From UHGV virus genome UHGV-0122608: DNA of 22,124 nucleotides; one strand, given 5' to 3'. Within the stretch, counting starts at the first letter, position 1; each line of letters begins with the position of its first letter. Under the pieces are notes generated by a model, which saw only the letters and a list, made by a program, of their open reading frames with translations, was not told the origin of the DNA and did not search any database. This document shows positions 20,432 to 20,461 of this stretch, piece after piece. Position numbers and translations under genes: made by a program. Origin of the DNA: a virus.

Positions 20432-20461
20432 ATATATGCCAGTACTAGTACTGGCATATAT
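20432..20461. terminator. 30-bp perfect palindrome; candidate bidirectional terminator or protein-binding site
   Basis: ATATATGCCAGTACTAGTACTGGCATATAT is a perfect inverted repeat, 12 nt downstream of the old stop and between the convergent old gene and the minus-strand small ORFs. No clean U-tract on either side. Its core is two overlapping copies of the window-wide AGTACTG motif. Confidence 0.4.

Follow-up and report, generated by a model that had tools for sequence, protein, structure and literature searches.

The DNA analyzed here (22,124 nucleotides, 35.6% G+C; hereafter the window) has a single long gene on its plus strand, old, and its structural genes (a gpA-type terminase, portal, HK97-type protease, and tail) all lie on the minus strand. 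The product of old is an OLD-family nuclease with Pfam AAA_15 and OLD-like_TOPRIM domains, for which the best PADLOC model is "Old" (1.5e-74). It is only distant kin of P2 Old, with no tblastn matches at E ≤ 1e-20 in 50,697 phage records, and a search for OLD homologues in sequenced phages and plasmids gave no matches. The TAG stop codon of old (20418–20420) is followed 12 nt later by the start of a perfect 30-bp palindrome, the subject of this analysis. The spacer beyond the palindrome (20462–20853) contains no ORF of at least 40 aa, and the next gene 3' is a convergent 94-aa ORF on the minus strand (20854–21138), 392 nt on, so the site does lie between convergent units, as the original prediction had it. 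Upstream of old, no plus-strand sigma-70 site reached the threshold of a consensus scan; an extended −10-like sequence is found ∼30 nt before the ATG and is partly conserved among orthologues as TGnTATT(T)AAT. The coordinates of these features and the hairpins discussed below are collected in Table 1.

Table 1. Features of the old locus (window coordinates) and hairpins found behind old (arm-loop-arm; L numbers designate loci)
Feature	Position	Strand	Basis or sequence
30-bp perfect palindrome, probable 3' stem-loop of the old transcription unit	20432..20461	+	Fold, uniqueness, homology, covariation
Conserved hairpin core, TGCCAG-N8-CTGGCA	20437..20456	+	Common to nine homologous versions
old, single-gene OLD-family ATPase/Toprim nuclease (P2-Old type), 606 aa	18600..20420	+	Pfam, PADLOC
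Putative old promoter element, TGGTATTTAAT	18561..18571	+	Orthologue conservation
Untranslated AT-rich spacer	20462..20853	+	C 65, G 37 counted over 20462–20860 (399 nt)
Swappable OLD cassette (moron): upstream region, old, hairpin, 399-nt non-coding spacer	18292..20860	.	Comparison with PapM-36-2
GC-rich two-box element, putative cos and left recombination junction of the hotspot	18277..18324	.	Lineage junction comparison
Window-type hairpin			ATATATGCCAGTA-CTAG-TACTGGCATATAT
L009/L027/L030 hairpin			GCATGCCGGTA-TTTT-TACCGGCATGC
L016/L018 hairpin			TCCTGCCAGT-TTAAGC-ACTGGCAGGA
L033 hairpin			CCTGCCAGT-TTAAAC-ACTGGCAG
L029 hairpin			TCACATGCCAG-...-CTGGCATGTGA
L025 hairpin			CGTCATTCATGTCAG-GGAAT-CTGGCATGAATGACG

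E. coli EC28, in which a ∼32-kb prophage lies in yegD beside a serine recombinase, matches positions 18400–22057 of the window at 100% identity. The identity with EC28 breaks off at 22057, so the source strain has an IS insertion at this position; the last 68 nt of the window (22057–22124) match IS ends at 95.6–98.6% (copies in Stx phages, and an IS2 annotated in phage SfX). The large terminase is spread over three ORFs (288, 141, and 205 aa; 15823–17793) and the portal over two (13914–15321). Split terminase and portal genes also occur in EC28, MFDS1016424, and C2, with differing break patterns, and an intact terL of ∼615–640 aa is present in L006 and in Citrobacter/Enterobacter loci. Unless these splits are assembly errors, the prophage is probably defective. 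An Rfam search of the window at E ≤ 1 gave no RNA family at the palindrome; its sole match was a tRNA-like sequence at 21915–21983 on the minus strand (31.5 bits against a gathering score of 29), which RefSeq labels "tRNA-OTHER" and for which ARAGORN makes no call.

The slot occupied by old is filled differently in a sister prophage. In E. coli PapM-36-2 (L005), the sequence is homologous to the window up to 18291 and again from 20861 on, and a SLATT+SMODS+HNH cassette lies between the same terS and a homologue of the 94-aa ORF. This cassette (L005 515–4000) encodes SLATT and SMODS nucleotidyltransferase proteins, an HNH endonuclease, and two small ORFs; it also has a hairpin with a U-tract after SMODS and, at 3803–3835, a 33-bp near-perfect palindrome (ACTATTGATTGTACAAgTTGTGCAATCAATAGT). 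The old cassette itself is found on other backbones. In two viral contigs (L006 and L007) and a metagenome contig (L014), it is 92.5% identical over window positions 18277–20550, and their backbones are below blastn detection, with terS, terL, and portal at 33–57% amino acid identity. L012 is 98.6% identical across the cassette and the early side and has the terminase side of another lineage, with the break at 18281. A tandem CTCATTA heptamer of ∼9–11 copies, absent from the window, lies ∼95 nt downstream of the palindrome in L006 (∼8270–8330) and L007 (∼2500–2565). From these comparisons, the promoter region, old, and the hairpin are predicted to move together, as one unit, among phages, islands, and islets of the chromosome. 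The AT-rich spacer 3' of the hairpin may be a Rho-loading region for transcripts that read through from old, or it may be a remnant of earlier cassettes; remnant intergenic DNA occurs in hotspots (PMC13586616).

At the other end of the cassette, conserved GC-rich boxes (TCGCGGCGGAAACTC ... GGAGAACCTAT) lie upstream of terS. An element within this region, TCGCGGCGRAAACTC, followed ∼25 nt on by GGAG(A/T)ACCTAT, is found ∼60 nt upstream of terS in all backbone lineages, with different cassettes, and all left-hand homology breakpoints fall on it. The two-box element is probably cos. The family that carries it has a gpA-type terminase and a serine recombinase and is represented in E. coli, Citrobacter, Enterobacter, Mangrovibacter, and Erwinia. 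A role for the palindrome as a cos or packaging element was rejected, since 2.1 kb separate it from the putative cos boxes and it also accompanies old at chromosomal sites outside phages (L025, L027, and L030). Nor is it a junction for cassette recombination, as the actual junctions are at ∼18277–18291 and at 20550 or 20861.

The palindrome (ATATATGCCAGTACTAGTACTGGCATATAT) has two 15-nt arms with 100% complementarity and zero spacer (ATATATGCCAGTACT and AGTACTGGCATATAT). The window was shuffled 200 times with dinucleotides preserved, and the longest zero-spacer arm obtained was 11 nt (mode 7–8), compared with the 15 nt observed. These results confirm that the inverted repeat is real and beyond chance, as originally noted. 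The original prediction also proposed a folding-energy calculation; as RNA, the sequence forms a hairpin with a 13-bp stem and a 4-nt CUAG loop at −16.4 kcal/mol on either strand. Folding z-scores were −4.6 in an 80-nt context and −4.4 (plus strand) and −3.6 (minus strand) in a 131-nt context.

A search for further copies of the 30-mer, likewise proposed, returned a single match in the window with up to 3 mismatches allowed. Outside the window, a 561-nt query across the palindrome matched 7 of 5,426 complete E. coli genomes, in one place each and always behind old. Exact scans of viral contigs and metagenomes, using either an 18-bp core or a 20-mer from the 3' end of old, recovered old cassettes only, plus two chance matches to the 20-mer. 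The idea that the palindrome is a common dispersed repeat, which the original prediction had raised against itself, is ruled out, for repeats of the REP or MITE type as well, by this single copy per genome and its constant position behind old.

Close relatives in E. coli genomes are 97–100% identical, too alike to inform on what is conserved, and old orthologues were gathered from other genera. These provided nine distinct hairpin sequences, associated with proteins 72–100% identical to the Old of the window. All nine hairpins lie 12–23 nt after the stop codon and have the common core TGCCRG...CYGGCA, with TGCCGG and CCGGCA in L009/L030 and with TGTCAG and N5 spacing in L025. In a MAFFT alignment, they are in register and the stem is free of gaps. 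Standard base pairs occupy 87% of the alignment cells, compared with 22–45% when the partners are slid by 1–3 columns. Both sides were altered in 6 of the 13 stem pairs (12 cells), a count reached in none of 500 shuffles, and the covariation score was 0.323 versus 0.156 (0/500 shuffles). RNAalifold, run independently, returned the same stem, with energies of −16.4 and −16.8 kcal/mol on the two strands. The compensatory changes are thus above those in controls, which is the behavior of a stem-loop under selection. The same covariation would also be compatible with a DNA cruciform or a single-stranded DNA hairpin.

The loop of the hairpin varies among the homologues (CTAG, TTTT, TTAAGC, TTAAAC, or GGAAT). 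The palindrome contains AGTACT twice, and the original description of it as built from an AGTACTG motif is true to the letter, but the homologues show that this content is not conserved. In the window-type hairpin, AGTACT is made up of the end of the stem (..CCAGT) and the loop (ACT..); among the versions, the window type alone has the word, which is replaced in the others (CCGGTATT, CCAGTTTA, CCAGTGCT, and TCAGGGAA). Since the loop is free to vary and the stem changes are compensatory, it is the base pairing of the hairpin that is conserved, not the word AGTACT.

The hairpin is retained both where the downstream gene is convergent (the window and L025) and where it is co-directional (L009, L016, L029, and L033). 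Because it is kept in both contexts, the hairpin would belong to the old transcript and not to the convergent junction. Where orthologues lack it, a strong but unrelated hairpin takes its position (L008/L019, L022/L023, L011/L031, and L010; z −2.3 to −5.6). Homology with more distant old orthologues ends at the 3' edge of the stem.

The tails of the hairpins were compared with those of intrinsic terminators. On the old-sense strand, T residues make up 6 (L016), 7 (L033), and 5 (L025) of the 8 nt that follow the stem, and none of the three loci has a U-run on the other strand. These hairpins have the same core as the window (TGTCAG in L025) and are, judging by their stems and tails, canonical intrinsic terminators of old. 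The window palindrome has the stem-loop of such a terminator (at least 5 bp with G-C pairs, a loop of 3–8 nt, and a position just past the stop codon), and on neither strand does it have the U-tract (∼5 or more U among the 8 nt that follow). Its plus-strand tail (CACAATTA) has 2 T residues in 8 and a tail score of 0.14, and its minus-strand tail (TAATTTAA) has 4 in 8 and a tail score of 1.78; three control terminators scored 1.3–5.1. A d'Aubenton-Carafa-type d-score was set aside as poorly calibrated, because two of the three control terminators were also negative, and the tail comparison alone was used. A consensus terminator scan made no call at the palindrome, in keeping with the earlier remark that its flanking U-tracts are weak. 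As the U-tract is missing from the window version, efficient intrinsic termination by this hairpin is doubtful. The L009-type and L029 hairpins are also without a T-tail, and because they keep the stem by compensatory changes, the stem appears to be useful without a tail. The proposal that the palindrome is a bidirectional terminator hairpin therefore holds in part: the covariation and the T5–T7 tails of three homologues support the kind of feature, and "bidirectional" is not borne out, as these tails are on one strand only.

Based on these comparisons, we propose that the palindrome is the transcript-end stem-loop of a mobile old defense gene that has lost its T-tail here, a reading to which we assign a probability of about two in three. 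The window version would most likely be a degenerate terminator or a hairpin that protects the 3' end. In the window lineage, the T-tail would have been lost, the stem lengthened by A-T pairs, and the loop made self-complementary by chance, so that the hairpin became a perfect 30-bp palindrome. It may terminate transcription weakly or in part and also block 3'→5' exonucleases, defining and stabilizing the 3' end of old mRNA. From what is generally known of hairpins that have no U-tract, Rho would then end any read-through transcription within the ∼400-nt untranslated C>G spacer. The hairpin is symmetric and should therefore form in minus-strand RNA too, where it has the better tail; it may also dampen antisense phage transcription into old.

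It is also conceivable, if unlikely, that the hairpin has no current function and is a decayed terminator whose U-tract was lost by recombination just 3' of the stem, that was "perfected" by a template-switch mutation, and that is still present as a recent product. Correction of quasipalindromes by template switching is an established mutational process. In addition to the absent U-tract, this explanation would account for the end of lineage homology at the 3' edge of the stem, for the 9-bp indel and numerous substitutions that come directly after this edge in L006/L007, and for the outermost A-T pairs, which are decaying in the same two contigs. Against decay of this kind, versions that have no U-tract persist in three separate lineages (the window type, the L009/L027/L030 type, and L029). 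The inner 10 pairs are moreover intact and have compensatory changes, and so the stem is arguably still under selection without a tail.

A further possibility, which we rate as rather unlikely, is that the palindrome is mainly a minus-strand terminator or insulator that protects old from antisense phage transcription out of the small minus-strand ORFs, with its old-sense role secondary. The minus-strand RNA continues as UAAUUUAA, the better of the two tails. In L006, a lone arm substitution gives A·C on the plus strand and G·U on the minus strand (−11.8 versus −16.1 kcal/mol). The unrelated hairpin behind old in L011 has a U-run on the minus strand (GUUUUUAC), and the alternative cassette of L005 has its near-perfect palindrome at the equivalent convergent junction. 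Against a role directed mainly at the minus strand, the wobble pairs of L025 and L030, unlike the substitution in L006, are valid in plus-strand RNA only, all three homologue T-tails are in the old sense with none on the opposite strand, and the hairpin is kept in the four loci in which the downstream gene is co-directional.

The palindrome had also been proposed as an operator or other binding site for a dimeric protein. This proposal directs attention to CAGTACTG, an 8-bp palindrome to which each AGTACT of the 30-mer is a 7/8 match. No other 8-mer in the window is as over-represented as CAGTACTG, which has 12 copies compared with 0.79 expected from an order-2 Markov model (sites at 1518, 2712, 2977, 4146, 4314, 5025, 5803, 6810, 10627, 11574, 12990, and 17404). 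When synonymous codons were shuffled within genes, 0.52 ± 0.72 copies were obtained (maximum 4), and none of 1000 shuffles reached 12. All 12 copies are in structural genes, in differing frames (Ser-Thr, Val-Leu, or Gln-Tyr-Cys). The whole prophage has 16 copies, versus 0 in ∼52 kb of flanking E. coli chromosome. CAGTACT is ∼20-fold enriched at the DNA level across the prophage structural genes, and CCAGTACTGG is found 3 times in the window. The enrichment of CAGTACTG is a DNA-level signal. It is also seen in an unrelated Serratia island that carries old (L011/L031; 7 copies compared with 0.52 expected), and the word is absent from the related backbones L006, L007, L012, and L014. No candidate binding protein or methyltransferase for CAGTACTG was found, and a literature search on it returned primer sequences only. 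Another repeated word, TGCACCAG(T), has 8 plus-strand copies (2983, 3672, 3843, 8713, 9263, 9458, 9608, and 14367) compared with 2 of its complement (10 in total versus ∼0.9 expected), mostly in tail and tail-fiber genes; this strand-biased word is probably a repeated Thr-Gly-Ala peptide, not a DNA signal.

We consider it very unlikely that the palindrome is an operator or "super-site" for a dimeric protein that recognizes a CAGTACTG-type word enriched in the prophage backbone. The presence of CCAGTACT twice in the palindrome, together with the abundance of CAGTACTG in the window and its absence from the flanking chromosome, is in favor of such a site, as is a chance of ∼0.1–1% (an estimate from measured frequencies) of finding (C)AGTACT in a 15-nt arm; the self-complementary center of the palindrome is also not needed by a hairpin. 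The homologous hairpins, however, replace AGTACT and keep their pairing by compensatory changes. The same palindrome is present in the four backbones that have no CAGTACTG at all, and the motif-rich Serratia element has a different hairpin behind old. The distance between the half-sites CCAGT and ACTGG exceeds that in the dispersed CCAGTACTGG by 6 bp, which rules out binding of both by one dimer in the same manner. In addition, the site is 3' of the gene and has no promoter-like signal within 100 nt, and a Pfam search of the cassette and of the early genes of the prophage gave no HTH or ParB-type protein. An operator with conserved half-sites, at a promoter, and with a regulator nearby is thus not what is found here, and this part of the original prediction is not upheld.

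Two known sites were compared with the palindrome by their consensus sequences and rejected: for the TrpR operator (central GTACTAGTAC), the half-sites are wrongly spaced, and for the SlmA site (GTGAGTACTCAC), the base 5' of AGTACT is G in 0 of 27 sites in the window. A general link between AGTACT and old was also discarded as inconsistent across orthologues: L009-type loci and L011 have clusters downstream of old, and L008, L010, L016, and L025 have none. In the Citrobacter-type loci L009 (7882–7972), L027, and L030, 1–3 AGTACT sites (CTCAGTACTCG, CTGAGTACTTA, and TTGAGTACTTC) lie within ∼150 nt after the old hairpin; those in L009 are 3 of only 4 in 13.8 kb. The cluster may be operator-like and serve the gene that follows. 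Least probable of all is a combination of both roles, in which the hairpin would have been remodeled (A-T for a G-C pair, and loop TTTAAG/TTTT to ACTAGT) to carry CAGTACT twice and would double as a strong site for a phage or host factor that marks, silences, or organizes prophage DNA; if true, such a dual-use palindrome would link expression of a defense gene to a system of that kind.

Taken alone, the palindrome is an ordinary feature of little weight, a new instance of the transcript-end hairpin of a defense moron. It is useful as a marker, since the end of homology at the 3' edge of its stem helps to define cassette boundaries in defense hotspots. The enrichment of CAGTACTG in the backbone and the presence of a hotspot adjacent to the putative cos in a non-P2 family are more worthy of attention.

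As a transcript-end stem-loop, the palindrome resembles the intrinsic terminators of prophage morons, which are G+C-containing stem-loops located shortly after the stop codon of an independently transcribed accessory gene; its pairing is conserved, and its orthologues have a T-run. It differs from them in that the copy in the window has no old-sense U-tract, an unusually long, A-T-extended stem of 13–15 bp, and a self-complementary loop. The 3' ends of Rho-terminated transcripts are trimmed back to a hairpin that has no U-tract, with a long untranslated C>G region on its 3' side. The window hairpin is similar to such trimmed ends and to REP-type exonuclease barriers in being stable, without a U-tail, and followed by a long untranslated C>G region. 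Unlike REP-type barriers, it is present in single copy, is linked to one gene, and is inherited with old, with no dispersed family.

On a larger scale, the locus is comparable with the defense hotspot of P2 and P4, which adjoins cos and in P2 itself holds old and tin (PMC9122126, 2022). Here, too, an Old-type nuclease is found as an exchangeable cassette beside a putative cos, and sister prophages have SLATT+SMODS in the slot. The phage in the window is not P2-like: its terminase is of the lambda gpA type and its protease of the HK97 type, it has a serine recombinase and integrates in yegD, and its G+C content is 36%. With cos being putative, the pattern of a defense hotspot next to cos would thereby extend from P2 and P4 to an unrelated temperate family with a lambda-type terminase in the Enterobacterales.
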